Position numbers and translations under genes: made by a program
In this document: positions 1 through 13,097 of the stretch, piece by piece
How positions within the stretch are numbered: position 1 is the first letter of the stretch
Layout: every line of letters begins with the position of its first letter
Notes under the pieces: model-generated
The model's database searches: none
What the model was told of the DNA's origin: nothing
The model's input: only the letters and a program-made list of their open reading frames with translations
Origin: Propionibacterium ruminifibrarum
GTDB taxonomy: Bacteria > Actinomycetota > Actinomycetes > Propionibacteriales > Propionibacteriaceae
DNA: 13,097 bases
NCBI RefSeq assembly: GCF_900289195.1
Contig: NZ_OMOH01000017.1
Span: forward strand, 1 to 13,097
Direction: 5' to 3'

Positions 1-65
1 TTCTGACAGTGGACGACTTCGCAATCCCCACTCAACCAGCAAGGCCCTCCCATGCGTTCACACCC

Positions 66-79
66 CTGGATCACAGTCC
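66..79 (+). repeat. Copy 1 of the 14-bp direct repeat CTGGATCACAGTCC
   Basis: An exact 14-mer is also present at 226-239, with a 160-bp offset. It lies in non-coding DNA downstream of the minus-strand operon. Confidence 0.6.
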
Positions 80-225
80 TTCAACCAACCAGCCCGATCA
101 GTACACCTAGCGGTGATCTCGAACACGCTTCACTGGCGAGGAAGTTGACGCTATGCGAACAGCCCGCGCGCAAGGTGTGAGCGTGCACGTGCTGGCGAGA
201 TAGTACGATATCCAGCGGGGGTGGT

Positions 226-239
226 CTGGATCACAGTCC
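226..239 (+). repeat. Copy 2 of the 14-bp direct repeat CTGGATCACAGTCC
   Basis: Exact match to 66-79. Confidence 0.6.
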
Positions 240-283
240 GGTCTGACCAAGGTTGATGAAGACTACCTCCCAATCGCTGGCGC

Positions 284-793
284 TTAACGAACGCCGGCGG
301 CATCTAATCGCCGCAGTAGCAGCGACGCCAGCGCTAGGTAGTCGAGCGCTTCATCAGGTGTGTCACCGATGTCGATTTCGTGTCCACGCGGGTTCCGGAT
401 ACCAGCAGCAGCCCCAGCGAAAATGGACTTGTAGCCGCGCTGTTCATCAATTTCTGACTCAGTAACGAGTGCATTGAGCCGAATCTTGGCGTTGGCCTCG
501 TTGAACGCGTCCATCATCAAGGCGTATCCGGTCTTGCCCCTCAGCTTGGAAAGGCGTTTGACTTCCTTCTCGACGAACTTGAATGCCTCAAAAACAGCTT
601 GCTCGCCGTATCCATCGTCGAAGAGACTTCTGATTTTCGACGGAAGATCGGGGTGAATGTTCCTCGTCTCGAAAGGATGCAGGTCTACCGCAGTCTCGTC
701 CTGCTCACTGTCTGGCTCCGAGATCTTTCTTATGAGTGGGTCAGCACTGATTGCCCGGACAATGCGCTCGAATCGATCCAGGCTAATGCTCAT
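284..793 (-). CDS. TIGR02391 / Hypoth_Ymh-family protein (169 aa) with a HEPN-like Rx4H motif; candidate RNase-type effector or toxin
   Basis: ORF-track ORF with an ATG start and a TAA stop at 284-286. Its start overlaps the upstream stop as ATGA (ATG 793-791, TGA 792-790). The pattern HPDL..LFDDGYGEQAVFEAFKFVEKEVK...GIRNPRGHE...DEALDYLALASLLLRRLD matches my recollection of the TIGR02391/PF09509 family. R133-N-P-R-G-H138 is encoded at 380-397. Confidence 0.8.
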   Translation of the reverse strand: MSISLDRFERIVRAISADPLIRKISEPDSEQDETAVDLHPFETRNIHPDLPSKIRSLFDDGYGEQAVFEAFKFVEKEVKRLSKLRGKTGYALMMDAFNEANAKIRLNALVTESEIDEQRGYKSIFAGAAAGIRNPRGHEIDIGDTPDEALDYLALASLLLRRLDAAGVR

Positions 794-1482
794 GACATCA
801 GGTGCTTTTTGATACTCGCGAAGATGGCGTCATATGTAGCAGCGTCTCCGTCCGCTGGAAGATTGACTTCTACGCGTACTGACAGACCGACCTCCCGGCT
901 GGACGAACCGGCTCCCACTGGAACTGCGGGGTGTGGTGCTGCGGAATCCGGCAAAGACCCTTCCGCCTTGGTGACGTGCTTCGCGGCGGGTGATTTTGGC
1001 TTCCGGGCTGAGGTTCCAGTGTTTGTCACGGTCTTCTGGTTACTCGTGCGTGCGGACGGAAGCTCGCCGTGTCCCGAGAGCGCAGCCAAGGTTAGAAAGG
1101 TTGATGCTTGGCGCTTGCCCACCAGCTCTGAAGTCTTGTCCGCACCACGAAACCAGTGGATCAGCGTGTCCTGATCCGCCTGTAGGGCATCATTCATCTC
1201 AGTGAATAGCTGAGAGTAGGCGTTTCGCATTGTATCTTCGAGGCCAGCTTTGAATTCATCGTCGTTGCCAAAGAGATAATCACCGGTCCCTTCCGGCCGG
1301 CTCCCATCTTCATCAATGATCCTGAGGAACCGGAGGATCGATAGGACGTAGGACTCGTTCGAGGGTGCGATGTTAAACCGCTTAAGATAGCTCGCGTCGA
1401 TCTTCGCTGGCGCTCCTTTGCGGAGCTGAGTGAACGTTTGGACTAGTGCGCCCTGGGTGGACGTGTAGGGATAAGTTGGCAT
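790..1482 (-). CDS. DUF5343-like protein (230 aa from the preferred ATG)
   Basis: The ORF track starts at TTG 1512. I prefer ATG 1482 (M11) because AGGAGG (1489-1494, minus) sits 6 nt upstream of it. The N-terminal part (PYTSTQGALVQTFTQLRKGAPAKIDASYLKRFNI...LSILRFLRIIDEDGSRPEG) resembles DUF5343 as I remember it. It is followed by an S/T/P/A/K-rich linker and a short C-terminal module (VRVEVNLPADGDAATYDAIFASIKKHL). Confidence 0.75.
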   Translation of the reverse strand: MPTYPYTSTQGALVQTFTQLRKGAPAKIDASYLKRFNIAPSNESYVLSILRFLRIIDEDGSRPEGTGDYLFGNDDEFKAGLEDTMRNAYSQLFTEMNDALQADQDTLIHWFRGADKTSELVGKRQASTFLTLAALSGHGELPSARTSNQKTVTNTGTSARKPKSPAAKHVTKAEGSLPDSAAPHPAVPVGAGSSSREVGLSVRVEVNLPADGDAATYDAIFASIKKHLMS

Positions 1483-1498
1483 GAGTGTCCTCCTGAAC

Positions 1499-1574
1499 TG
1501 GGGCCGACTCAAATCGGCACGTTGATAGCGACATGAGCAGTATACCTAGATAAGTACGCATGGAGTCGGCCCCA
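1499..1574. repeat. 12-bp perfect inverted repeat (TGGGGCCGACTC at 1499-1510, GAGTCGGCCCCA at 1563-1574) flanking a 52-bp AT-rich spacer
   Basis: Read directly; the arms are exact reverse complements. The spacer contains TATACT (minus) and TTGATA (plus) promoter-like hexamers. The proximal arm lies between the putative -10 and the RBS of the DUF5343 gene. Confidence 0.7.
1539..1544 (-). promoter_or_regulatory. Candidate -10 hexamer TATACT for the DUF5343/TIGR02391 operon
   Basis: The minus-strand sequence TATACT lies about 55 nt upstream of ATG 1482 in the only AT-rich patch. No convincing -35 was seen. Confidence 0.3.
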
Positions 1575-1629
1575 CTCCCAGTGCTCTTAGACGTGCAAAG
1601 CCCGCGAGCAACCGTAAAACCGCGGAGTG

Positions 1630-2241
1630 TTAGGTGTATGGACCGAGGAAGCGCTCGTCACAGTAATGGATCATGTGGGCCGGGTGGTCGACACACCACG
1701 CCTCGGACTCCTAGGCGATCTTGTCAAGATGCTTGCGGAACTTGGCACTGTCAAGGAAGTATGACACATAGACGAGGCCTACTGGTGATTCTGTGAACAG
1801 GGCGGTCAGTTCGGTTTGTCCCTTGGAGTCCATGGGGTCATGAGAACTGGCTGCCTCTAGGGGCACGAGCCAGTTGCGATCAGGTATCTTTTCTTGCGCG
1901 TCGGCCTCTATGGTGAGCGAGGACAGAGTCGCTCGCCCGAAGAGTGTCCATTTGCCGCCTGCGCCGCCAATGTAGAGCCCTTCCCTCCAGGTGTGAAGCG
2001 AGGACAGAAGTCCTCGGCTATAGTTGCTTGAGTAGCACGGTCTACCCGCCAGGTGTCAGAGTGGAGACTGATCTATCAGGGAAAGTGAGTGGGATGTGAT
2101 CCATCTCCGTGCTGCCGCGTAGCGAACCCTGAGCCCAGGCGGCTCGGCAAGGTGCTGATTGACAGCTAACTGCCAATCATCGGTGTCGTAAGCGCACAGT
2201 ATGCCTAGCGTCTCCGCTATGGCCTGATAGTTCCACTTTAG
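1630..2241 (-). pseudogene. Decayed reading frame of unknown family (about 203 codons, two in-frame stops, no start codon)
   Basis: My own minus-strand translation gives a single frame open from 2241 to TAA 1630-1632. It is interrupted only by TGA (2056-2058) and TAG (1711-1713). It reads LKWNYQAIAETLGILCAYDTDDWQLAVNQHLAE...SPL*HLAGRPCYSS...GLYIGGAGGKWTLFGRATLSSLTIEADAQEKIPDRNWLVPLEAASSHDPMDSKGQTELTALFTESPVGLVYVSYFLDSAKFRKHLDKIA*ESEAWCVDHPAHMIHYCDERFLGPYT*. About 9-10 stops would be expected by chance in 203 codons at this GC. It is absent from the ORF track because no piece has a start codon with 60 or more codons after it. Confidence 0.4.
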
Positions 2242-2492
2242 TCAGTCTCGTGGTCAAGTTGTGACCGTCAGTGATTTCTGGGGTGCTGCGCTTACCGGGG
2301 CAGCGAGTCGAGCAACGGGGAAGAAATTGTCTGTGCATTGAGACGTCTCAGACCTTTACGTGCGACTGAGGGCACTAATGACGGGCATTTTTTCGCCCCC
2401 AGAGAAACCCTTCTTGGTCATCGCTTTTCGAGACATCCAAGAAAAACACCCCGCATCTTCTGATACCGCGCGGCCTAGCAAGACACTGTGGG

Positions 2493-2565
2493 TGGAGCAT
2501 AGGGGACTCGAACCCCTGACCTACGGCTTGCAAAGCCGTCGCTCTACCAGCTGAGCTAATGCCCC
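2493..2565 (-). tRNA. tRNA-Ala (anticodon UGC)
   Basis: The reverse complement folds as a 73-nt cloverleaf: GGGGCAT TA GCTC AGCTGGTA GAGC G ACGGC TTTGCAA GCCGT AGGTC AGGGG TTCGAGT CCCCT ATGCTCC A. The anticodon loop is UU-UGC-AA. The G3:U70 alanine identity pair and the GTTCGAGTC T-loop are present. The discriminator is A73, and the next three bases are CCC rather than CCA, so the CCA tail is not exactly encoded. Confidence 0.95.
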
Positions 2566-2616
2566 AGTCGCCTGCCGGGCCGCTTCGCTTCGGGCGGCCG
2601 CGGAACGGCGCCTCAC

Positions 2617-2622
2617 AGTGTA
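2617..2622 (-). promoter_or_regulatory. Candidate -10 (TACACT) for the tRNA-Ala gene
   Basis: The minus-strand TACACT (TANNNT) lies about 50 nt upstream of the mature tRNA 5' end. The -35 region is weak (TTCGGC-like). Confidence 0.3.
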
Positions 2623-2660
2623 GCGGGTGGGCGGGCGGCGCGCCGAACCCGCTGACCGGC

Positions 2661-2730
2661 CACGACGCCGCGGGCACGGCTGCCTCGAGATCTCCGAAGC
2701 CGCCTCCGGATCGATCTCACGACGCCGCGG
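2661..2730 (+). repeat. 13-bp direct repeat CACGACGCCGCGG (2661-2673 and 2718-2730)
   Basis: Exact copies 57 bp apart in the apparently non-coding gap between the tRNA and the DUF5318 gene. A nearby GCCACCGG duplication occurs at about 2739-2760. Confidence 0.5.
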
Positions 2731-3019
2731 ACGCAGGGGCCACCGGTGAGCCGCCACCGGCTGGTGCTCGTGCCTGAGGTCGTGGCCCATGGCACAGCAC
2801 GCCGGCTCAGGACCCTTTCGGCCTGGCAACGGCGGTCCTGCGAGGCGACCAACGGGGCCGGCCCAGGTCTGTGGGCAGTGGCGGACGGTCGCGGCCCTTG
2901 ACAGGTCCGGTAGCCCGCCGGGGTCGTCGCGTTCGTCCTCGGGGACGGTCCTCCGTTCGCCGTGACGTTCTGTGACATCGGGGGCGCCTGGCACAGCCGG
3001 CCCAGTTACTCTTGGATCC

Positions 3020-3439
3020 ATGCGGACACAACGTCAGGTGGTGAGTTACGCGTTGCGGCGCCGGGCCACGCTCGAGGCGATGCGGCGCCCCAACGCCACC
3101 ATGATGGAGTCCGACCCGTGTGACGCGGATCCGCTGCTCATCCGGTCGGCCCTCCACCATGGCGTCCCGTCCGACGCCGAGTGTCCGGTCTGCGCCGGCG
3201 AACACATGAGCGTGCTGCACTATGTGTTCGGCGACCAGCTCGGACAGTTCTCGGGGCGCATCAAGCAACCCGCCGAGCTGGACGAGATGGAGACCGAGTT
3301 CGGCGAGTTCACCGTCCGCGAGGTCGAGGTCTGCCCCGACTGCGGATGGAACTTCATGATCTCGGCCTACAAGCTGGGTGATGGCCGCCGACGCCGCCCG
3401 CCGCGGCATCAGCAGACAGTTGAGGACATCTATGGCTAG
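3020..3439 (+). CDS. DUF5318-family zinc-ribbon protein (139 aa)
   Basis: The ORF track begins at GTG 2972. I prefer ATG 3020 (MRTQRQVVSYALRRRATL...), which matches the usual N-terminus of this family as I recall it. Two CxxC pairs (CPVC and CPDC) suggest a Zn ribbon. TACTCT (3007-3012) lies 7 nt upstream of the ATG with no SD, so the transcript may be leaderless. The stop TAG 3437-3439 overlaps the PBP start. Confidence 0.8.
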   Translation: MRTQRQVVSYALRRRATLEAMRRPNATMMESDPCDADPLLIRSALHHGVPSDAECPVCAGEHMSVLHYVFGDQLGQFSGRIKQPAELDEMETEFGEFTVREVEVCPDCGWNFMISAYKLGDGRRRRPPRHQQTVEDIYG

Positions 3440-5618
3440 CAACAAGAGCACTCCCCGCCGTCCTGCCAGGCCCCGCAAGGGCGGCAAGAAGCGCATCGCC
3501 GCCATCGCCGGCATGGTCGTGGCCGGGCTCGTCGTCCTCGCCCTCATCGTGTCGGGCATCTTCTACGCCTCCGTCAAGCTGCCCGAGCCCAACGAGGACT
3601 ACACGACGCAGACGACGAGCATCTACTACCGTGACGGCTCGACCCTCGTCGGCGAGCTCTCGGTGCAGAACCGCACCGAGGTCGAGTACTCCGCCATGTC
3701 CGAGAACATCAAGAACGCGGTCATCGCGGCCGAGGACCGCAGCTTCTGGACCAACCACGGCATCTCGCCGAAGGGCATGGTCCGTTCCCTGTGGGCCATC
3801 GCCCGCGGCCAGGACCTGCAGAGCGGTTCGACGATCACCCAGCAGTACATCAAGATCCGCTATCTCACCAGCGCCCAGACGATGAGCCGAAAGCTCAAGG
3901 AGCTGGCGCTGGCGGTCAAGATCAACAAGACGGTCTCCAAGGAGGAGATCCTGACCGGCTACCTGAACACCGTCTACTTCGGCCGCGGCGCCTACGGCGT
4001 CGAGCAGGCCGCCCAGACCTGGTTCGACACCAACGCCGCAGGCCTGGACCCGGCCCAGTCCGCGATGCTCTCGGCCCTCATCAACAGTCCCTCCGCGCTC
4101 GACCCGTCCAACGGTGACGAGGCCGCGGCCCAGCTGCTCGAGCGCTACCAGTACGTGCTCGACGGCATGCTCGAGGCCGACAGCATCAGCCAGGCGGACC
4201 ACGACGCCGCCTACGACGCCCTGCCCGAGACCGCGCCGGTCGCGGCGGACGACACCTACGGCGGCCCCAGCGGCTTCCTCATGACGATGGTCCAGAGTGA
4301 ACTGCTCGATGCCGGCCTCACTGACGAGCAGATCTCCGGGGGTGGCCTGAAGGTCACCACGACGTTCGACGCGACCATGCAGAACGCGGCCGTCGAGACC
4401 GCTCAGGACTACACGACCCGTGCCGTGGCGAACGCCCCCACCGAGGGCCTGTCCGAGGACGACCTGCACATCGCCATCGCCTCGGTGGCCGTCGGCACCG
4501 GCGAGGTCTACGCGCTCTACGGCGGCCCCGATTACCTGACCTCGCAGATCAACTGGGCGACCACCGCCCGTCCGGCGGCGTCCACCTTCAAGGCCTGGGC
4601 GCTGCTCGCCGGCCTGGAACAGGGCTTCGGGCTGGGCACGACCCTCAACGGCAGCACCTTCACCCCCGCCGGCGACCCGGTGGTCGTGCACAACGACTCC
4701 AACGTCAACTACGGCAACGTCTCCCTGCTGCAGGCCACCTCGTACTCGATGAACACGGCCTTCACCGACCTGGTGACGACCATGGAGGACGGCCCGCAGT
4801 CGGTCATCGACATGGCCAACGCGGCGGGCATCCCCACCGGTGAGGGCTGGGACATCAACAACCGCATCGCCCTGGGCACCGCCCAGGTCAGCCCGCTGGC
4901 CAACGCCACCGGCTTCGCTACGATCGCCAACGACGGCAAGGCCAACACCACCCATGTCGTGCAGAGCGTCACCGACGCCGGCGGCGAGACGCTCTACACC
5001 GGCGACACGTCGAGCACCCAGGCGATCGACGAGAACGTCGCCCAGAACGCCCAGACGGCCCTCGAGTCGGTCGTCACGAGCGGCACCGGCACGACGGCCG
5101 GCCAGCTCGGCCGCGACGTCATCGCCAAGACCGGCACCAAGGACGACAACGACTCCGAGACGATCTCGGCCTGGTTCGTCGGCGCCACCAAACAGGTCTC
5201 GACGTCCGTCATGTTCGTCGCCGGCGATGGCAACGCCGACCTCAACCCGTACTCGCCGTACGGCTCGTTCAGCTCCGGCCTCTACCCGGCCAACACCTGG
5301 GAGGACTACATGGAGGTGGCCACCGCCGGCATGGACTACGAGTACTTCTCGGGGCTGAACAACATCGGCGCCGGCTCGGGGAACAACGCCACCTACGGTC
5401 CGACGGACAACCAGACCTACTACCCGTCCTCGGAGTCCACTTGGTCGGAGCCGACGGAGCAGCAGCCGACGTCCGAGCCCTCCCAGACGACCATGCCCTC
5501 GGCGGAACCGAGCGGCGGCACAGGCGGTGGCCAGAACCCAAGGCCGGGTGGCGGCGTTGGTAACAATGACAACGAAAACGAGGAGCAGAACGAGAACAAG
5601 CCAGAACGGGAGGGCTGA
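3432..5618 (+). CDS. ponA: Class A (bifunctional) penicillin-binding protein: GT51 transglycosylase plus transpeptidase
   Basis: ATG 3432 (MASNKSTPRRPARPRKGGKK, then the TM segment IAAIAGMVVAGLVVLALIVSGIF) overlaps the upstream stop by 8 nt. GT51 motifs are EDRSFWTNHG, GSTITQQY and RKLKE. Transpeptidase motifs are STFK, SMN and KTGT. The protein ends in a low-complexity S/T/P/E/Q/G/N tail. Confidence 0.95.
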   Translation: MASNKSTPRRPARPRKGGKKRIAAIAGMVVAGLVVLALIVSGIFYASVKLPEPNEDYTTQTTSIYYRDGSTLVGELSVQNRTEVEYSAMSENIKNAVIAAEDRSFWTNHGISPKGMVRSLWAIARGQDLQSGSTITQQYIKIRYLTSAQTMSRKLKELALAVKINKTVSKEEILTGYLNTVYFGRGAYGVEQAAQTWFDTNAAGLDPAQSAMLSALINSPSALDPSNGDEAAAQLLERYQYVLDGMLEADSISQADHDAAYDALPETAPVAADDTYGGPSGFLMTMVQSELLDAGLTDEQISGGGLKVTTTFDATMQNAAVETAQDYTTRAVANAPTEGLSEDDLHIAIASVAVGTGEVYALYGGPDYLTSQINWATTARPAASTFKAWALLAGLEQGFGLGTTLNGSTFTPAGDPVVVHNDSNVNYGNVSLLQATSYSMNTAFTDLVTTMEDGPQSVIDMANAAGIPTGEGWDINNRIALGTAQVSPLANATGFATIANDGKANTTHVVQSVTDAGGETLYTGDTSSTQAIDENVAQNAQTALESVVTSGTGTTAGQLGRDVIAKTGTKDDNDSETISAWFVGATKQVSTSVMFVAGDGNADLNPYSPYGSFSSGLYPANTWEDYMEVATAGMDYEYFSGLNNIGAGSGNNATYGPTDNQTYYPSSESTWSEPTEQQPTSEPSQTTMPSAEPSGGTGGGQNPRPGGGVGNNDNENEEQNENKPEREG

Positions 5619-5708
5619 TCCTTCTTGACACCGGACCACCGGAAGCCGAGTATCAGACATCGGTGCTGTTGTATCGTCCCTTGTCGTGGTCGGTGACGGT
5701 TCCTGCCG

Positions 5709-7331
5709 GTGCCGGCTGGCAGGATGGGTGCCGTGAACGGATCAGTACGTCTCTCGGAGCGCATCGGCGGCCCGGTGGGCAGGCATGCGCGCCCGTGGGG
5801 CATCTGGTTCGACCCGATGCCGTGGTCGATTCTCGTCGCCGGCCTGTCCTGGGTGGCCCTCATGCTGCGCCAGGTGCCCTGTCACCAGACCAGCTACGGC
5901 AACCCCGTCAACACCTACTCCCGCCTGTGCTACTCCGACATCCCGCTCGTCTACCAGGGTGACGGCATCGCCACGGGCGCCGGGCTCTACTCCGAGGCGG
6001 GCCTGCCCTACCCGCCGCTGGTCGGCCTCGTCATCGCGGCCTGCCGGGGGTTCACGGGCCTGCTCGGCGCCAACGTCAGTCCCTCGGCGACGGGCCAGGA
6101 GCAGCTCGACGCCTCCTACCTGTTCTTCGTCCTGACCGCCGTCGTCCTGTTCATCGCCTTCCTCGTGGTCGTCGTGGCTCAGGCCCGGCTCGGGGCCGGC
6201 TCGGCCAGCCAGGCCACGCAGGGCGTCCAGACCCGCAGCTTCGACGCGCTGCTCGTCGCGGCGGCCCCCGTCGTCATCGCCTCCGGCCTGATCAACTGGG
6301 ACATGCTGGCCGTCGCGCTCGTCATGCTCGGGGTCTTCGCCTGGGCCGGGCGACGGCCCCTGCTCGCCGGAGCCGCGCTGGGCGCGGCCTTCTCGGCGGC
6401 GTTCTTCCCCGTCCTCGTCCTCGTGGCCCTGGCACTGGTGTGCTGGCGCGGCGGGCGCATGCGCGCCTGGGCGGTGGGCCTCGGCGGGTTCGCCGGGGCC
6501 TGGGCGCTCCTCAACGCGCCGCTGCTCCTCACCGACCCCGGTGGCTGGTCGGTGTACTGGACCAGCGGCATCGAGCGCTCCGCCGACCTCGGCTCGCTGT
6601 GGTACGTCCTGGGGCTCATGGGCCTGCAGGTCCCGGCCGTCACCGTGATCAGCGCCGCCCTCACGGTGACTGGCCTCTTCCTCGTCGCCGCCCTCGTGGC
6701 AGGGGCACCGCGCCGCCCGCGCGTCGCGCAGGTGATCCTGCTCGTCCTCGTCGTCTTCACCGTCTGCTCCAAGGTCTACTCCCCGCAGTACGCCCTGTGG
6801 CTGCTGCCCTTCGTCGTCCTGGCACGGCCGAAGGTCCGCGACTGGGCCGAGTGGAACATCACCGAGCTGTGCTACTACTTCGCCGTCTGGGGTTTCCTCA
6901 ACGGCGTCCTGGGCCCGGGCACCGGGGCCGACGCCCTCTACTGGATCGCCACGTTCCTGCGCATCGGCGGTCAGTTGTGGCTGGCGTCCTCGGTGGTCCA
7001 CGACATCCTCAACCCCTGGGACGACCCGGCCCGTGTCGGTCATCTCGACGACCTCACCGGCGGCGTGCTCGATCACGCGGCCGACCCGGTGGCGATCGCC
7101 GTACCGGCCGGGGCCCGGGTCGGTGCCGGGTACGCGCCCGGCCAGGCCCCCGTGCCCGCGGGGACGCCCGGCCACCGGCTGCCCGGCGGGCTACCGGCCC
7201 ACGGACAGCCCGGCGGATACCCGTCGGGGGCCGCGCCACAGGGCAGCGCCATACCGGGGGCCGTTCCTCAAGAGGGCGGTGCCGCCCCGGAACAGGCCCG
7301 GCCCCCATGGCCCGGCGAGGGGCCCCGGTGA
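5709..7331 (+). CDS. Polytopic membrane protein, GT87/DUF2029-like glycosyltransferase (Rv0051-like), with a Pro/Gly-rich C-terminal tail
   Basis: Long ORF with many hydrophobic helices (for example LFFVLTAVVLFIAFLVVVVA, VVIASGLINWDMLAVALVMLGVFAW, FFPVLVLVALALV). It follows a class A PBP, as I recall for Rv0050-Rv0051. The start is uncertain among GTG 5709, ATG 5724 and ATG 5817. Confidence 0.8.
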   Translation: MPAGRMGAVNGSVRLSERIGGPVGRHARPWGIWFDPMPWSILVAGLSWVALMLRQVPCHQTSYGNPVNTYSRLCYSDIPLVYQGDGIATGAGLYSEAGLPYPPLVGLVIAACRGFTGLLGANVSPSATGQEQLDASYLFFVLTAVVLFIAFLVVVVAQARLGAGSASQATQGVQTRSFDALLVAAAPVVIASGLINWDMLAVALVMLGVFAWAGRRPLLAGAALGAAFSAAFFPVLVLVALALVCWRGGRMRAWAVGLGGFAGAWALLNAPLLLTDPGGWSVYWTSGIERSADLGSLWYVLGLMGLQVPAVTVISAALTVTGLFLVAALVAGAPRRPRVAQVILLVLVVFTVCSKVYSPQYALWLLPFVVLARPKVRDWAEWNITELCYYFAVWGFLNGVLGPGTGADALYWIATFLRIGGQLWLASSVVHDILNPWDDPARVGHLDDLTGGVLDHAADPVAIAVPAGARVGAGYAPGQAPVPAGTPGHRLPGGLPAHGQPGGYPSGAAPQGSAIPGAVPQEGGAAPEQARPPWPGEGPR

Positions 7332-8458
7332 GCCGGCGCTCCGGCAGCACCCGCACCATCGTCATGGTGTGGGCGTGCACCCGTGCCCTGCTCGCCGCGG
7401 TGCTGCTGCACACCGTCAGCACCAATGACACGACGATCGGCCGGGCGCTGGGCAACTGGGACGTCCAGCACTACCTCGCCATCGCCACCAGCGGCTACGC
7501 AGACCGCACGGACATGGCCTTCTTCCCCGGCATCCCACTGGTCATGCACGTGGCCACGCTGCTCGGCCTGCCCGCCGTCGAGACGATCGCCGCGGTCAGC
7601 GCACTGGCCTCGCTGGCCGCCGCCCTCGCCATGGGCCGCCTGGGCGGGCAGTGGGCCGCGGTCGCGTGGCTGCTCGCGCCGATGGCCGTTTTCACCGTCG
7701 TCGGCTACACCGAGGCTCTCTTCTGCGCCTTCGGCCTGTGGGCCTGGGTGCTCGCCCGCCGGGGCCACTGGTGGGGGGCCGCCCTGCTCGCCGCACTCGC
7801 CTGCACCACCCGCATCTCGGGCGTCTTCCTCGTCGCCGGACTCGTCCTGCTGGCACTGGCCGGGGGCGAACCCACCGTCGAGGGAGCCGTGGACTGCAAG
7901 CGCACCACCTCGCCGCCGGCCCGTATCCGGCACGCCGTCATCGCCGCGCTGCCGCTGCTCGTCGTCGTCGCCTTCTTCGCCCACCTGCACGGCATCACCG
8001 GCAGCTGGGACGCCTGGTTCAGCGCCCAGCGCGCGGGCTGGGACCGCAGCTGGACGACGCCTTGGCAGAGCCTGCAGAACACCCTGTTCGCCACCGACCC
8101 GGCATCCTGGCCGGACGAGCCGACCCGCGCCTGGATCTTCCGGTTCGAGATCGTCTCGGCCGCAGCCGGTCTGGTCACGGTGATCGTGGCCCTCGCCCGC
8201 AGGGCGTGGGCGCAGGCCGGCTACGTGCTCACCCAGCTCCTCGCCCTGACCACCGCCACCTGGTTCCTGTCGGTCAACCGCGGCGACCTGCTGTGGTTCC
8301 CGATGTTCATCGGCATCGGGTGGCTCATCGCCCGCCGGCCCGCATCGAGGGGAGCCGACCTGGTGCGCGCCATCGTCTGGCTGCTCGTCACCTTGGCCGA
8401 TCTGGTGCTCATGGCCTGGTGGGCGAGATTGTTCTTCCTGGGGCACTGGGCCAGTTAG
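7307..8458 (+). CDS. Polytopic membrane mannosyltransferase-like protein (PIG-V / GT-C-like)
   Basis: The N-terminal motif GNWDVQHYLAIATSGYADRTDMAFFPGIPL resembles the PIG-V-type mannosyltransferase signature (WD..HY..IA..GY...AFFP). Many TM helices follow. Candidate starts are ATG 7307, GTG 7328 (a GTGA overlap with the upstream stop at 7329-7331) and ATG 7364. The ORF-track extension back to 6440 is an out-of-frame overlap with the previous gene. Confidence 0.8.
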   Translation: MARRGAPVSRRSGSTRTIVMVWACTRALLAAVLLHTVSTNDTTIGRALGNWDVQHYLAIATSGYADRTDMAFFPGIPLVMHVATLLGLPAVETIAAVSALASLAAALAMGRLGGQWAAVAWLLAPMAVFTVVGYTEALFCAFGLWAWVLARRGHWWGAALLAALACTTRISGVFLVAGLVLLALAGGEPTVEGAVDCKRTTSPPARIRHAVIAALPLLVVVAFFAHLHGITGSWDAWFSAQRAGWDRSWTTPWQSLQNTLFATDPASWPDEPTRAWIFRFEIVSAAAGLVTVIVALARRAWAQAGYVLTQLLALTTATWFLSVNRGDLLWFPMFIGIGWLIARRPASRGADLVRAIVWLLVTLADLVLMAWWARLFFLGHWAS

Positions 8459-8534
8459 GACCGTCCGGCGCCCCGCTGGCCGTAGAGTGGGGCCACGAGG
8501 CGGCGCAGCGCGCCCGCCGGGAAAGGAGTCAACG

Positions 8535-9785
8535 ATGACCGGCTGGAGCGACGACACGATCTGGTGGGCCGTCTACCCGCTCGGCTTCCTCGGCGCGTCC
8601 ACCCGTCCGGCCGACGGGAACCGGCCCCTGGAACACCGACTGCCCGCGCTCGAGGGCTGGCTCGACTACCTGCTGTCGATCGGCTGCAACGGCTTGGCCC
8701 TCGGCCCGATCTTCGAGTCCGTCTCGCACGGCTACGACACCCTCGACTACTTCCGCATCGACCCCCGCCTGGGCGACGAGGACGACCTCGCCCACCTCGT
8801 CCGGGCCTGCCACGACCGCGGCATCCGCGTGGCCCTGGACGGCGTCTTCAACCACGTCAGCGCCGCCTACCCGGACCTGCTCGCCGCCCTGGCCGGCGGC
8901 CCGGGGGCGCCGACCGCCGACATGTTCCACATCGACTGGTCAACGAACCCGCCCACCCGACTCAACTTCGAGGGCAGCGACGACCTCGTCCGCCTCAACC
9001 ACGAGTCCGGCGCCGTGCGCGAGCTGGTCACCCGCGTCATGAACCACTGGCTCGACCTCGGCGTCGACGCCTGGCGTCTCGACGCCGCCTACGCCGTGCC
9101 GCCCGCCTTCTGGGCGCCCGTCCTCGCCGACGTCCGTGCCGCCCACCCGCAGGCCTTCGTCTGGGGCGAGGTCATCCACGGCGACTACGCCCGGATCGTC
9201 GCCGACTCCACCATGGACTCGCTCACCGAGTACGAGCTGTGGAAGGCGACGTGGAGCAGTCTCGCCGACGAGAACTTCTACGAGCTCGACTGGACGCTGA
9301 CGCGGCACAACGAATTCTGCGAGAGTTTCACCCCGCTCACCTTCCTCGGCAACCACGACACCACGCGCATCGCGAGCCGGGTGGGCGGGGCGAAGGCGAT
9401 CCTGGCCGCCACGGTGCTCTTCACCGTCGCCGGGACCCCCAGCATCTACTACGGCGACGAGCAGGGCTTCCACGGCGTCAAGTACGACCGCGCCTGGGGT
9501 GACGACGAGGTACGCCCGGTGATGCCCGCCCGCCCCGACGAGCTCTCCGAACTCGGCGCTGACGTGCTGCGGTACTACCAGCAGCTCGTCTCGATCCGGC
9601 GCCGCAACCCGTGGCTGGTGCGCGCCCGCACCACCGTCACGCAGCTGGCCAACGATCGCATCGACTACGAGGCCTGGGACCCCGATGAGCGGACCCGCCG
9701 GTTGCATGTCGCGCTGGGAGTGGGGGAGTCCGTCACGGCGCGCATCGCCGACAGCGGCGGGGAACTCTTCGCGTTCGAGGGCTGA
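8535..9785 (+). CDS. GH13 alpha-amylase-family glycoside hydrolase (cytoplasmic, 416 aa)
   Basis: ATG 8535 is preceded by AAGGAG (8523-8528) with a 6-nt spacer. The four GH13 conserved regions are present: DGVFNH, DAWRLDAAY, WGEVIHGDY and FLGNHDTTR. No signal peptide is apparent. Confidence 0.92.
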   Translation: MTGWSDDTIWWAVYPLGFLGASTRPADGNRPLEHRLPALEGWLDYLLSIGCNGLALGPIFESVSHGYDTLDYFRIDPRLGDEDDLAHLVRACHDRGIRVALDGVFNHVSAAYPDLLAALAGGPGAPTADMFHIDWSTNPPTRLNFEGSDDLVRLNHESGAVRELVTRVMNHWLDLGVDAWRLDAAYAVPPAFWAPVLADVRAAHPQAFVWGEVIHGDYARIVADSTMDSLTEYELWKATWSSLADENFYELDWTLTRHNEFCESFTPLTFLGNHDTTRIASRVGGAKAILAATVLFTVAGTPSIYYGDEQGFHGVKYDRAWGDDEVRPVMPARPDELSELGADVLRYYQQLVSIRRRNPWLVRARTTVTQLANDRIDYEAWDPDERTRRLHVALGVGESVTARIADSGGELFAFEG

Positions 9786-9821
9786 ACCAGGCCGACGAAC
9801 CCCTACCGGACGGGGGTGAGA

Positions 9822-9859
9822 GTGGTGCGCGGACAGCGACGTTGATGCCCGCGCACCAC
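9822..9859. terminator. GC-rich hairpin: 11-bp stem (GTGGTGCGCGG / CCGCGCACCAC) with a 16-nt loop
   Basis: The arms are perfect reverse complements, at 9822-9832 and 9849-9859. The hairpin lies in the convergent intergenic region between the GH13 gene and the CBM48 gene. There is no clear U-tract. Confidence 0.45.
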
Positions 9860-9868
9860 GTGTGGTGT

Positions 9869-9895
9869 GGGCCCGGCCGGTCACCGCCCGGGCCC
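9869..9895. terminator. Second GC-rich hairpin: 8-bp stem (GGGCCCGG / CCGGGCCC) with an 11-nt loop
   Basis: The arms lie at 9869-9876 and 9888-9895, 10 nt from the stop of the minus-strand CBM48 gene. Confidence 0.4.
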
Positions 9896-9904
9896 GTCGC
9901 CCGG

Positions 9905-10183
9905 TCAGACGGACAGGAAACCACCCTGCTCGGTGACCTCCTGGGCGTCGATGTCGTCGAACCATTCGCCGTTGGCGCCGAGGTACCGGAAATGAATGAG
10001 CGTGCCGGCCGGCACGGTGATCATCGTCGAGGCGCTGCCGTCGGGTCGTACCCGCAGCGGGTTGCGCAGGGGCTGCCAGTCGTTGAAGGAGCCGACGACG
10101 CTCACCGGCATCGCCGGGTGATCGGCTGGCAGGGTGAACGTGATGGCGACAAGATTCTCCGACACCGTTTCCTTGCGGATCAT
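9905..10183 (-). CDS. Stand-alone CBM48 / isoamylase-N 'early set' glycogen-binding domain protein (92 aa)
   Basis: ATG 10183 is preceded by GGAGG (10190-10194) with a 6-nt spacer; the ORF-track TTG at 10189 is too close to that SD. The sequence VAITFTLPA...VSVVGSFNDWQP...L...DGS....ITVPAG..IHFRYLGANGEWFDD is typical of CBM48/AMPK-beta-like domains. Confidence 0.88.
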   Translation of the reverse strand: MIRKETVSENLVAITFTLPADHPAMPVSVVGSFNDWQPLRNPLRVRPDGSASTMITVPAGTLIHFRYLGANGEWFDDIDAQEVTEQGGFLSV

Positions 10184-10316
10184 GACCAACCTCCGCGGTG
10201 CGAACCCCGGCTCTGGACAGGACTGTGCGGTCCGGACGAGAACGGGGCTGAAGTGATCCGGCAGACCCTCTTGAATCCAAGATTAGAGATGTTCTGCTCA
10301 TTAAGCGAGGCGTCTC

Positions 10317-10366
10317 ATCAAAAGAAACAACCCTCCGCACAGGAAGCCCACAGGCAGGCCGCGGAG
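10317..10366 (-). terminator. Possible intrinsic terminator after tag
   Basis: On the minus strand, CTCCGC (10361-10366) and GCGGAG (10333-10338) form a 6-bp stem with a long 22-nt loop. GGTTGTTTCTTTT follows. The structure sits immediately after the TGA stop at 10367-10369. Confidence 0.3.
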
Positions 10367-10978
10367 TCAGCAGAAGGCGGCGTCGCCGGGCTCGCCGGGG
10401 GCCTCGATCAGGCCGTCGGCGCCCTCGAGCCGGTCATCCACCATGCCGATCGCCTGCATCATCGCGTACATGGTCGTCGGCCCGACGAAGACGAAGCCCT
10501 CGGCGCGCAGCGCCCTGGCCAGCGCCTCGGACTGCGGGCTGCGAGTCGGGATCTCGGCCATGCTCGCAGGACGCGGCCCCGCCGGTGGGAGGAACGACCA
10601 GACGAGCCGGGGCAGACCGCCGCGGTCGCGCAGCGCCCTGGTCGCGCGGGCGTTCGTGACGGCCGCCTCGATCTTGCGCCGGTTCCGCACGATCGACGCG
10701 TCGGTGAGCAGCCGCTCGACGTCCGCCGGCCCGAAGCGGGCGACCCGGTCGACGTCGAAGCCGGCGAACGCCCGGCGGAAGGCAGGGCGCTTGCGCAGGA
10801 TCGTCGCCCAGCTCAGGCCCGACTGGAAGGCCTCCAGGCACAGGCGCTCGTACAGGCCGCGCTCGTCGGTGACGGGGGCGCCCCACTCGTGGTCGTAGTA
10901 GTCGCGCAGCAAGGGGTCATGGGCGGCCCAGACGGGGCGGACGCGCCCGTCCTCGCCCACGATCAGTTCGGCGCTCAT
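10367..10978 (-). CDS. tag: DNA-3-methyladenine glycosylase I
   Basis: ATG 10978 (MSAELIVGEDG...) is preceded by GGAGAGG (10984-10990). It forms an ATGA overlap with the ogt stop. The motifs YYDHEWGAPV, LCLEAFQSGLSWATILRKRPAFRRAF, IVRNRRKIEA, NARA and FVGPTTMYAMMQAIGMV are collinear with E. coli Tag. The longer ORF-track version to 11482 overlaps ogt out of frame. Confidence 0.92.
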   Translation of the reverse strand: MSAELIVGEDGRVRPVWAAHDPLLRDYYDHEWGAPVTDERGLYERLCLEAFQSGLSWATILRKRPAFRRAFAGFDVDRVARFGPADVERLLTDASIVRNRRKIEAAVTNARATRALRDRGGLPRLVWSFLPPAGPRPASMAEIPTRSPQSEALARALRAEGFVFVGPTTMYAMMQAIGMVDDRLEGADGLIEAPGEPGDAAFC

Positions 10979-11523
10979 GGGCGCCTCTCCAGATCGAGCA
11001 GGTACCTCTTCATCGCGGCGCCGCCCCGGTAGCCGCCCACACCCCCGCCGGCGGGCAGCACACGGTGGCAGGGCACGATGATCGGCACCGGGTTGTGCGC
11101 GCACGCGCCCCCGACGGCCCGGGCGGCACCCGCAGGGGCGCCGGCCATGTCGGCCAGGCGGGCGTAGCTGACGGTCTGGCCGTAGCCGACGGTGAGAAGA
11201 GCGCGCTGCACCCGTTCCCGGAACGGGGTCGACAGCCGCAGGTCGACCGGTACGTCGAAGGTCATGCGCGTCCCGGCGAAGTATGCGCGCAGTTCGTCGG
11301 CCGCCGCGAGGACGTGCTGCCCCGACCGCTCGGGCGCCGACCCGCAGGCCCTCGCCAGGGCGGCCAGCACCTCGTCGTGGTCCTCGGCGGGCAGGCCGAC
11401 GCGCAGCACTCCCCGCTCGGTGACGGCGACGAGGAGCGGTCCCAGCGGCGACTCGACCGTGTCCCAGCGCACCGGACCCCACTCCGCAGGGCCGGTTCGG
11501 GCCCGGCCGGGCCCGGGGTTCAT
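10975..11523 (-). CDS. ogt: Methylated-DNA--protein-cysteine S-methyltransferase
   Basis: ATG 11523 is preceded by GAGGAG (11530-11535) with a 6-nt spacer. It forms an ATGA overlap with the upstream ATPase stop. The active-site motif IIVPCHRVL is present, along with the upstream YGQTVSYARLA helix and an N-terminal Ada/Ogt-like domain. Confidence 0.92.
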   Translation of the reverse strand: MNPGPGRARTGPAEWGPVRWDTVESPLGPLLVAVTERGVLRVGLPAEDHDEVLAALARACGSAPERSGQHVLAAADELRAYFAGTRMTFDVPVDLRLSTPFRERVQRALLTVGYGQTVSYARLADMAGAPAGAARAVGGACAHNPVPIIVPCHRVLPAGGGVGGYRGGAAMKRYLLDLERRP

Positions 11524-12692
11524 GGTTGGCTCCTCAGGTAGCGGCCGAAGTGCGGCACGGTGAACGCGATCTTGCCGCGCTCGCTCGAGTAGATGAGCCC
11601 CTTCTTCATGAGGGCGTCCCGCGCCGGTGACAGGGACTGCGGTTTGCGGCCCAGCGAGGCCGCCACCTCGGAGCTGGAGACCTCGGCGTCGTCGATGCCG
11701 AGGTCGGCCATCGCCCGCAGGTAGTCGCGCTCGGCGGGGGTCGCCCGCTCGAAGCGGCTGCCGAAGAAGCCGACCGCCAGCTCGCTCTCGGCCTCCGGGG
11801 TGCCCATGCGTACGTCGTCGGCGGTGATCGGGCTGGCCGCCGCGACGTCCCAGACGGCCTTCCCGTAGGCCTGGATGAAGTACGGGTATCCGCCGGTCGC
11901 CTCGTACATGGCGTCCAGGGCGTCGGCGCCCCAGTCCGCGTCCTCGTCCTGGGCCGGTACCCGAAGGGCCTTGTCTGCCTCGTCCCGGTCGAGACGGTCG
12001 ATGTTCTGGTAGCTGAACAGCCGCTCCGAGTAGCTCTTGGACGCCGACAGCAGCGCCGGAAGGTGCGGCAGGCCGGCGCCGATGACGATGAGCGGGAGTC
12101 GCTGCTGGCTGATCTCGTGGCAGGCCGCGCACAGCGCCGAGACGTCCCCGGGCCCCAGGTCCTGCATCTCGTCGATGAAGACGCCGACGCCCACCCCCAT
12201 GTCGGACGCCAGCCCGCCGAGGTCGGTGAACAGCTCGACGAGGTCGATCTCGATGTCGCCGGAGTCGGCGCGGCCCTTCGTCGCGGGGACGCGGATGCCG
12301 GGGTTCCACCGTTCGGCGAGCTTGGCGCCCGGCTTGGCGTCACGTTCGATGAAGGCGCGGATCTCGCCGAGCAGCTGGTCGGTGTCGGGATGGCCCAGCT
12401 CGCGGACGGCCATGTGCAGGGCGGCGCCGAGGGGGCGGCGCAGCGTCTGGTCGGGCCGGGCCTCGAGCTTGCCCGTGCCCCAGCGGGCGCGGACCGCCTG
12501 GCCCCGCAGCGCGTTGAGCAGAACCGTCTTGCCGACGCCGCGCAGGCCGGTGAGGATCAGTGAGCGCTCGGGGCGGTTGCGGGCCACCCGCTCCAGCACC
12601 ACGTCGAAGTGGGCGAGCTGCTCGCCGCGTCCGGCGAGTTCGGGAGGGCGCTGGCCGGCGCCGGGCGCGTACGGGTTGCGGATGGGGTCCAT
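11520..12692 (-). CDS. AAA/STAND-like ATPase (Arch_ATPase / ORC-Cdc6-like) with a C-terminal winged-helix domain
   Basis: 390-aa ORF. The N-terminus NPYAPGAGQRPPELAGRGEQL is the typical pre-P-loop segment of this family. Walker A is GLRGVGKT (nt 12525-12548) and Walker B is VGVFIDEMQ. The C-terminal segment ERDYLRAMADLG...SSEVAASLGRKPQSLSPARDALMKKGLIYSSERGKIAFTVP looks like a MarR-type wHTH. Confidence 0.88.
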   Translation of the reverse strand: MDPIRNPYAPGAGQRPPELAGRGEQLAHFDVVLERVARNRPERSLILTGLRGVGKTVLLNALRGQAVRARWGTGKLEARPDQTLRRPLGAALHMAVRELGHPDTDQLLGEIRAFIERDAKPGAKLAERWNPGIRVPATKGRADSGDIEIDLVELFTDLGGLASDMGVGVGVFIDEMQDLGPGDVSALCAACHEISQQRLPLIVIGAGLPHLPALLSASKSYSERLFSYQNIDRLDRDEADKALRVPAQDEDADWGADALDAMYEATGGYPYFIQAYGKAVWDVAAASPITADDVRMGTPEAESELAVGFFGSRFERATPAERDYLRAMADLGIDDAEVSSSEVAASLGRKPQSLSPARDALMKKGLIYSSERGKIAFTVPHFGRYLRSQP

Positions 12693-12698
12693 GGGACC

Positions 12699-12704
12699 AC
12701 ACTA
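12699..12704 (-). promoter_or_regulatory. Candidate -10 (TAGTGT) positioned for a leaderless ATPase-ogt-tag transcript
   Basis: The minus-strand TAGTGT (TANNNT) ends 6 nt before ATG 12692, and no Shine-Dalgarno lies between them. This spacing is typical of actinobacterial leaderless mRNAs. Confidence 0.4.
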
Positions 12705-12712
12705 TGACAGTG

Positions 12713-12730
12713 TCTAGGAGAAAGCCTAGA
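12713..12730. repeat. Palindrome TCTAGG-agaaag-CCTAGA over the -35 region of the ATPase operon
   Basis: The 6-bp arms are exact reverse complements. A third CCTAGG occurs at 12791-12796. CTAG is otherwise scarce in the high-GC part of the window. Confidence 0.45.
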
Positions 12731-12811
12731 TGCACGCCATCGACGTGTCGGTGCGGCCCGTTCCACGGGAGATCGGAGAGGACATCTGAGCCTAGGACTC
12801 GGGTCTGGGTT

Positions 12812-13097
12812 TCAGTCGGTGAAGTGTCGGGCGAGTCTGGTTCTCAGTATTTCTTCGTCGCCTGAGTACATGTCGTCCTCCCAGTCACTGGCCAGGTAGT
12901 TGGGTGGGGCGTCGTGGTAGGACACGAATCTCATCTCGGGGGGCTGGCGGGTCATTTTCACTGCCCCGAACAGCGCCCCGGGTCGGTCGTCCCGGTATGC
13001 CCGGGCATGCCATGTCCCGGCGGCCGCTGCGAGTTCCTCGGCATACCGGCCGGCAGGCCAGCCCGTGATCTCGCCGCCGTCGGCCAGGGCCCTGATC
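12812..13097 (-). CDS. Hypothetical protein, 3' portion only (5' end beyond the window)
   Basis: My own minus-strand translation is open from the window edge to TGA 12812-12814. It reads IRALADGGEITGWPAGRYAEELAAAAGTWHARAYRDDRPGALFGAVKMTRQPPEMRFVSYHDAPPNYLASDWEDDMYSGDEEILRTRLARHFTD*. It is not in the ORF track because there is no start in the window. I do not recognise the family. Confidence 0.5.
   Translation of the reverse strand, partial: IRALADGGEITGWPAGRYAEELAAAAGTWHARAYRDDRPGALFGAVKMTRQPPEMRFVSYHDAPPNYLASDWEDDMYSGDEEILRTRLARHFTD

Follow-up and report, generated by a model that had tools for sequence, protein, structure and literature searches.

What do two small, overlapping genes do that have stayed intact in an otherwise decayed island beside a tRNA gene of Propionibacterium ruminifibrarum? 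The stretch of DNA considered here, hereafter called the window, comprises 13,097 nt (NZ_OMOH01000017.1, positions 1-13,097) and carries both genes on its minus strand. Gene A (1482..790; ATG 1482-1480, TGA 792-790) encodes a DUF5343 protein of 230 aa, the upstream partner, while gene B (793..284; ATG at 793) encodes a Ymh/TIGR02391 HEPN-family protein of 169 aa, a putative ribonuclease (RNase) effector. An earlier sequence-only reading had proposed that the two genes form an undescribed toxin or defence module. As detailed below, A and B are an obligate two-gene cassette whose pairing goes far beyond chance, and the interpretation favoured on balance, by little more than an even chance, is that of a mobile two-gene toxin-antitoxin or abortive-infection module in which the HEPN RNase B is restrained by A.

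Two overlapping genes as an obligate cassette

The stop codon of A and the start codon of B share the tetranucleotide ATGA (793-790, minus strand), precisely where the sequence-only reading had joined the two open reading frames (ORFs). Its further claim that only the first gene has a strong Shine-Dalgarno site likewise agrees with the sequence: an AGGAGG (1489-1494, minus strand; cctcct on the plus strand) is placed 6 nt from the ATG of A, and inspection upstream of the start of B revealed no AGGAGG-type site. B is therefore probably translated by coupling to A. For A itself, homologues in the alignment begin with MPxYPY, which favours the ATG at 1482 as start over a TTG at 1512. The arrangement of two small co-transcribed genes with the regulator first and coupled translation corresponds to a Type II-like toxin-antitoxin layout. 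Exact-sequence look-ups gave no record for either of the two window proteins.

Pairing of the two genes was assessed from both sides. The search from A covered one genome per species (185,579 species) and used the C-terminal peptide of A as pattern, so that it is biased towards A proteins keeping this peptide. This search gave 93 relatives, and the 80 loci kept belong to Actinomycetota, Acidobacteriota, Alpha- and Gammaproteobacteria, Planctomycetota, Bacteroidota/Rhodothermota, Verrucomicrobiota, Nitrospirota, Bipolaricaulota and Bdellovibrionota. Directly downstream of A and on the same strand, a B homologue (E values of 1e-39 to 1e-95) is present in all 80 loci as well as in five further ones (85/85), and in almost all of these 85 the two genes overlap by 4 to 17 nt (-4, -8, -11, -14 or -17). 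Starting from B instead, a metagenome scan yielded 391 relatives; among the best 80, which were examined, 77 had room upstream, and A is the directly preceding gene in 77/77 of these testable loci, a few of which lie on contigs duplicating genome loci. The adjacency and co-occurrence check proposed with the sequence-only reading thus returned overlapping neighbours in both directions.

The pair is patchily distributed over at least nine bacterial phyla, and copies of actinobacterial type are present in a Rhodothermales genome. Divergence of the N-terminal domain of A is correlated with that of B (r = 0.81; Mantel test, 0/999 permutations), and therefore the two genes are inherited and transferred as one unit. 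A recurrent third gene is not found among the 150 nearest flanking genes of 75 loci, which spread over 136 Pfam families. Two apparent single-ORF fusions of A and B (P0221; L022:6001-7191) were rejected as artefacts, being either frameshifts in long-read metagenome-assembled genomes (MAGs) or start miscalls of a normal overlapping pair.

Upstream of A, the window contains a perfect 12-bp inverted repeat (1499-1510 / 1563-1574, TGGGGCCGACTC / GAGTCGGCCCCA) with arms 52 nt apart, the proximal one ending 4 nt before the Shine-Dalgarno site. Inverted repeats of like geometry occur in S. parvus (L001) and Janibacter (L020), their sequence being unlike that of the window. Across 131 regions upstream of A, comparable repeats are seen in 7-9%, versus 1-4% in shuffled sequences, and they have no sequence in common. 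A conserved operator of the family was rejected on account of this rarity and the missing common sequence; in the window, the repeat could be a local operator or a hairpin in the 5' untranslated region.

Protein families, architecture and a sister branch

The hidden Markov model check suggested for the family assignments was passed by all three profiles, each scoring above its curated cut-off. B matches Hypoth_Ymh (PF09509) with 107.5 bits (cut-off 25; E = 5.1e-31) and TIGR02391 with 78.5 bits (cut-off 39.45; E = 4.3e-22), and A matches DUF5343 (PF17278) with 50.1 bits (cut-off 27; E = 4.5e-13) over aa 5-136, corresponding to profile positions 1-133 of 140. The HEPN-type Rx4H motif that had been read from the downstream protein is R133-N-P-R-G-H138 (codons at 380..397, minus strand). 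Within the stretch GIRNPRGHE it is invariant across 40 close homologues of B, and IRNPRGH is almost invariant in 76 sequences from different phyla. Among PADLOC models, the C-terminal Ymh part of PD-Lambda-3_B (model positions 137-263 of 270) is matched by B with E = 1.6e-15, and the Ymh part of Aga_HEPN, an Argonaute-associated HEPN protein, with E = 5.9e-8. A published classification places Ymh among the HEPN families and notes its conserved Rx4-6H motif; the domain occurs there alone or fused to paraMORC, AbiJ-NTD1 and AbiTii domains, in restriction-modification contexts (Anantharaman et al. 2013, PMC3710099).

Regarding the fold, the predicted model of B is all-alpha (helices 63-82, 89-97, 112-132 and 146-165), with a mean predicted local distance difference test score (pLDDT) of only 67. 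Its top Foldseek match is the HEPN protein 2hsb (probability 0.84, template modelling score 0.41/0.52, not significant), followed by the HEPN entries 1wol and 2q00, AbiV and the 7ae8 toxin, all with E > 0.5. For the four-helix HEPN core named in the sequence-only reading, the best structural matches are thus HEPN proteins, none of them statistically significant because the model is only moderately confident. Hence, the assignment of B to the HEPN families rests mainly on profile match, motif and published classification. Among PDB chains, neither A nor B has a relative by sequence or profile search.

For A, 377 homologues were retrieved, and besides DUF5343 the protein matches the PADLOC model PDC-M34A (PDLC04589; E = 1.5e-24) over aa 3-229, i.e. 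model positions 4-208 of 208, with the C-terminal module included. No nucleotidyltransferase match was obtained at E <= 1 in Pfam, NCBIfam or PADLOC, where DUF5343 and PDC-M34A were the only hits, in line with the earlier statement that the partner is not an antitoxin of the minimal nucleotidyltransferase (MNT) type. Its division into a globular domain, a disordered linker and a small C-terminal module, as read originally from the translation, is reflected in both pLDDT profile and conservation. The N-terminal globular domain (aa 1-142; 1057..1482, minus strand) is predicted to be helical, with a pLDDT of about 90 (about 90-95) over aa 7-142, helices at 10-23, 30-34, 40-52 and onwards, and a winged-helix-like part in its first ~65 residues, where the predicted elements follow each other as helix, short strand, helix, helix and hairpin. 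Foldseek returned mostly GntR, Rrf2, IclR and MarR regulators, as weak local matches with E of at least 0.7, and nothing significant against PDB and BFVD. From these weak local matches and the order of secondary-structure elements, the domain is possibly a winged helix, which we treat as a lead.

The linker (aa 143-195; 898..1056, minus strand) is basic, enriched in the residues K, A, T, P and S, and predicted to be disordered (pLDDT < 50 over aa 145-201). Across phyla, its sequence identity is 14%, while its length of 42-61 aa is kept and K+R (6-14) exceeds D+E (1-9). The C-terminal module (aa 196-230; 793..897, minus strand; VGLSVRVEVNLPADGDAATYDAIFASIKKHLMS), predicted to form a strand and an amphipathic helix (214-229, pLDDT ~70), exceeds all other parts of the protein in conservation: its mean pairwise identity amounts to 0.70, versus 0.49 for the N-terminal domain and 0.53 for B, and it is almost invariant among 76 sequences from many phyla. 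When the N-terminal domain alone was searched against 1.84 billion representative proteins, 475 clusters were obtained, nearly all of them of 200-240 aa, and therefore the three-part architecture defines the family.

More divergent DUF5343 members, including proteins of Bordetella bronchiseptica, Variovorax and Sphingomonas, end in a related but distinct C-terminal peptide (type 2, hHIDVQVHISxDxSxEQIDxIFASMxKHL). The loci of this sister branch include L166-L168 (Bordetella bronchiseptica), L169-L171, L173, L178 and L180. In five independent ones, the overlapping downstream gene encodes 170-172 aa with DUF4145 as the top match in Pfam; the threshold is passed by one of these proteins (32.8 bits) and narrowly missed by four, and neither hmmsearch nor hhalign detected a relation between this partner and B. 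The 2013 classification counts DUF4145, too, among the HEPN families (PMC3710099). Pairing with two HEPN families, Ymh and DUF4145, argues that DUF5343 proteins are specific for HEPN-type partners without being confined to one family of them, so that their job would be tied to HEPN enzymes. As the best PDC-M34A score is reached in the sister branch (P0462, E = 4e-38), the PADLOC candidate was probably defined there.

The type-1 peptide of A is always accompanied by a Ymh partner. A strict correspondence between peptide type and HEPN family of the partner was nevertheless discarded, since in L176/L177 a type-2 peptide occurs with a different Ymh protein. What follows the peptide type is the N-terminal helix of the partner: partners of type-2 proteins, DUF4145-type or Ymh-type alike, share the form A..[LI]Q.E[VI]....G.P (six sequences, namely the Ymh-type L177:5079-5654 and the DUF4145-type partners in L166, L169, L173, L178 and L180), and partners of type-1 proteins have L..FE.I.R in its place. 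Limited as they are to six sequences, these forms hint that the C-terminal peptide of A may dock on the N-terminal helix of its partner.

The island around the pair

The low-GC island that the sequence-only reading had placed at a tRNA gene is a remnant of an integrative element. GC content is ~0.55 over 1-2400, versus ~0.70 beyond a tRNA-Ala(TGC) gene (2489-2566, minus strand; ARAGORN; Rfam RF00005, 74 bits) whose 3' end faces the low-GC segment and marks the island boundary. Upstream of the pair, at 1630..2238 on the minus strand, tblastn and translation revealed a pseudogene of a BsuBI/PstI-type restriction endonuclease, 5'-truncated and with two in-frame stops, which matches aa 111-320 of an intact enzyme in locus L004 with 51% identity (tblastn). 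At 117..221 on the plus strand, tblastn identified what is left of a large serine recombinase gene, its last ~35 codons, corresponding to aa 606-640 of the 651-aa recombinase in L004 (66% identity), with stops upstream in the same frame.

Window positions 115-2238 as a whole share 71% nucleotide identity with loci L002-L007, which stem from a Propionibacterium MAG, a Tessaracoccus genome and a Micrococcales MAG. In these relatives, intact genes for an N6-methyltransferase and the BsuBI/PstI restriction enzyme precede the pair and a large serine recombinase gene follows it, all within an element that also encodes another recombinase and a coupling protein of TraG type. The methyltransferase gene is gone from the window. 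A and B, in turn, are full length and have kept every family-invariant residue, the Shine-Dalgarno site and the ATGA coupling. The island is thus a decayed integrative element of which only the A-B pair stayed intact.

Window positions 2445-2566, the tRNA-Ala region, are 76-81% identical to L004:4462-4583, ~4.7 kb upstream of A in that locus, over which the gene caller had placed a serine recombinase ORF. Judged by this similarity, the two segments are probably the same tRNA integration site, which would imply a deletion of ~3.7 kb in the window.

Beyond the tRNA gene, host genes follow for a DUF5318 protein, a class A penicillin-binding protein, a mannosyltransferase-like membrane protein, an alpha-amylase, a 3-methyladenine glycosylase, Ogt and an AAA_16 ATPase. 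Two ORFs of this high-GC host part, encoding a predicted membrane protein of 540 aa (5709-7331, plus strand) and a protein of 94 aa (9905-10189, minus strand), gave no Pfam match at E <= 1e-4; both are unrelated to the A-B pair.

Defence genes are found near some of the relatives. The Bordetella pair (L166) adjoins Hachiman (HamA and a DEAD helicase) and VbhA, the pair in L173 adjoins type I HsdR, and NYN and PIN genes, too, are found next to the sister branch. About one in ten flanking genes matched a PADLOC model, mostly of restriction-modification enzymes, which is a raw count without a background rate; at E <= 1e-10, 28 PADLOC families were matched, each by 1-2 of the 150 nearest neighbours.

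Proposed function and comparison with known systems

How might such a cassette work? B would be a HEPN ribonuclease, probably a dimer with an active site composed of two Rx4H motifs, as expected for its family. Going by the gene anatomy, A would be its dedicated regulator, produced ahead of B and, owing to translational coupling, at a constant ratio to it, and would keep B inactive by direct binding. The likeliest contact might be the C-terminal strand-helix peptide of A, to which the flexible basic linker would give reach, while the folded N-terminal domain, possibly a winged helix, may bind DNA, RNA or an infection cue. If A were lost, degraded or displaced, possibly upon phage infection or loss of the element, B would be freed and could cut cellular or phage RNA, leading to growth arrest. 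The HEPN module is favoured because the family assignments hold, the Rx4H motif is invariant and pairing is strict both ways; restraint of B by A is favoured because the layout is that of a classical antitoxin-toxin pair and a precedent exists in the winged-helix shield of the type IX retron. That the cassette outlasted the genes for the restriction enzyme and the recombinase beside it is in keeping with a module under selection or one that is difficult to lose.

Several points weigh against the restrained-RNase interpretation. Fold support is weak, both for HEPN in B (best E 0.53) and for the winged helix in A (0.7), and enrichment in defence islands is modest. A was unmatched in 72,556 plasmids and 50,697 phage records and B in IMG/VR viral contigs, while classical toxin-antitoxin pairs are common on plasmids. 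Moreover, a simple antitoxin would not usually exceed its toxin in size and contain a well-conserved folded domain, as A does relative to B, and the C-terminal peptide of A could instead be an oligomerisation element. A broader proposal, which we put forward as tentative and at present doubtful, regards DUF5343 as a dedicated, modular class of HEPN-RNase regulators whose almost invariant C-terminal peptide, tethered by the basic linker to a domain sensing nucleic acid or a cue, would dock on the partner and gate its composite active site, across at least two unrelated HEPN families, and which would constitute a new toxin-antitoxin/abortive-infection family in many phyla; here, the docking site may be the N-terminal helix of the partner.

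The size and folded domain of A, conserved as widely as B, would fit the main rival, a sensor-effector or targeting complex, in which B is inactive alone and A is an obligate positive subunit that recruits or activates the HEPN RNase, binding nucleic acid via its winged-helix-like domain and basic linker and directing the enzyme to specific targets or responding to a phage cue. The consistently basic linker and the lack of plasmid matches, which is atypical of addiction modules, point in the same direction, and two-way strict co-occurrence suits an obligate complex just as well as a toxin-antitoxin pair. This alternative is nonetheless judged unlikely, as coupled translation with the regulator first and the HEPN gene second is the classical antitoxin-toxin layout, the partners in HEPN-MNT and type IX retron HEPN-winged-helix systems restrain the nuclease, and addiction would more readily account for a pair that persists while its neighbours decay.

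A housekeeping or regulatory role outside genetic conflict, for instance of A as transcription factor and B as RNA-processing enzyme, would be compatible with flanking genes that are mostly ordinary metabolic or unknown ones and with the transcription regulators among the winged-helix-like matches of A. It appears highly improbable, however, for a pair that is rare and patchy (93 relatives among 185,579 species genomes, at least nine phyla), lies in the window in an island of host-atypical GC at a tRNA gene, has no conserved genomic neighbourhood and in some copies accompanies integrative elements, restriction-modification or Hachiman genes; in addition, Ymh and DUF4145 are HEPN families otherwise tied to defence contexts (PMC3710099). 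Least probable of all is that the P. ruminifibrarum pair itself is a dead remnant, now inactive. Both flanking ancestral genes are reduced to a pseudogene or a fragment and recombinase and methyltransferase are gone, but A and B retain their full length, their invariant residues, the Shine-Dalgarno site and the ATGA coupling.

Among known systems, HEPN-MNT (type VII toxin-antitoxin) is alike in being a mobile two-gene operon found in islands, in which the partner gene precedes that of the HEPN RNase. In contrast, A is not a minimal nucleotidyltransferase, and B belongs to a different HEPN family (Ymh); given that A has no nucleotidyltransferase match, neutralisation by AMPylation is not expected. 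AbiEi is a large antitoxin with an N-terminal winged helix and a C-terminal neutralising part, encoded upstream of the toxin AbiEii, and the AbiE pair (type IV toxin-antitoxin) doubles as an abortive-infection system in which AbiEii is a nucleotidyltransferase. A resembles AbiEi in layout and upstream position, while the AbiE toxin is not a HEPN RNase and A has no AbiEi match in Pfam or PADLOC.

PD-lambda-3 is reportedly an abortive-infection system of E. coli (attributed to Vassallo et al. and the year 2022). Its subunit B ends in a Ymh-type domain matched by B of the window, and a HEPN domain of Ymh type can hence take part in abortive infection. Differences lie in an extra N-terminal domain of ~136 aa, which is missing from the window protein, and in the partner, as A matches no PD-lambda-3 model. 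The system has been used as an abortive-infection control (PMC13190303) and has been grouped under PD-(D/E)XK nucleases (PMC10952713).

A comparable logic is seen in Retron-Kva2 (type IX), where a winged-helix protein of ~245 aa encloses the HEPN subunit and covers its active site up to the moment of infection, when a phage nuclease triggers release (bioRxiv 10.64898/2026.07.14.738597). There, too, the HEPN RNase gene overlaps that of its winged-helix partner, and the same restraint logic is proposed for A and B. Unlike the cassette, the retron needs a reverse transcriptase and msDNA, has its HEPN gene first, and its HEPN subunit is without a canonical Rx4-6H motif. No sequence similarity to A-B was detected and no PADLOC retron model matched; a reverse transcriptase is present neither among the window ORFs nor among recurrent neighbours, and Rfam over positions 1-2700 finds only the tRNA.

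In databases, PDC-M34 is a candidate phage defence cassette of two genes (FAM_01148>>FAM_01657) that has 97 instances in RefSeq and was put forward because of its embedding in restriction-modification, BREX or DISARM loci (Payne et al., bioRxiv 10.1101/2024.01.29.577857). Both are two-gene cassettes and A matches PDC-M34A over its full length, whereas the best PDC-M34A match has a DUF4145-type partner and the branch of the window pairs with Ymh. No PDC-M34B model matched B of the window, five B homologues from other phyla or two DUF4145-type partners, a negative explained either by absence of the model from the PADLOC copy searched or by a model that is too narrow. Our literature search found no paper describing the pair, or dealing with DUF5343, TIGR02391 or PDC-M34 in a functional sense, so that an unnamed line of a supplementary table and the PADLOC models are the sole prior record of the cassette. 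Of the term undescribed used in the sequence-only reading, the part concerning the pair itself stands; as regards its components, Ymh was already classed as HEPN in 2013 (PMC3710099) and the A family is the PADLOC candidate PDC-M34A.

HEPN RNases are among the commonest effectors of bacterial immunity and toxin-antitoxin biology, and few of their restraints are well understood: AMPylation by MNT proteins, control by cyclic oligoadenylates in CRISPR ancillary nucleases, and the cage of the type IX retron. A partner of two HEPN families that is best conserved in a tethered peptide of 35 residues would offer a simple, new control mechanism, and the pair would give a candidate function to DUF5343 and Hypoth_Ymh, both annotated in Pfam as families of unknown function. 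Should the cassette indeed protect against phage, a PADLOC candidate would become a defined system and be extended to Actinomycetota. Measured against these known systems, an RNase of the HEPN type preceded by a cognate partner is a well-known arrangement; what is not well known is the partner, along with its apparent tethered-peptide design.

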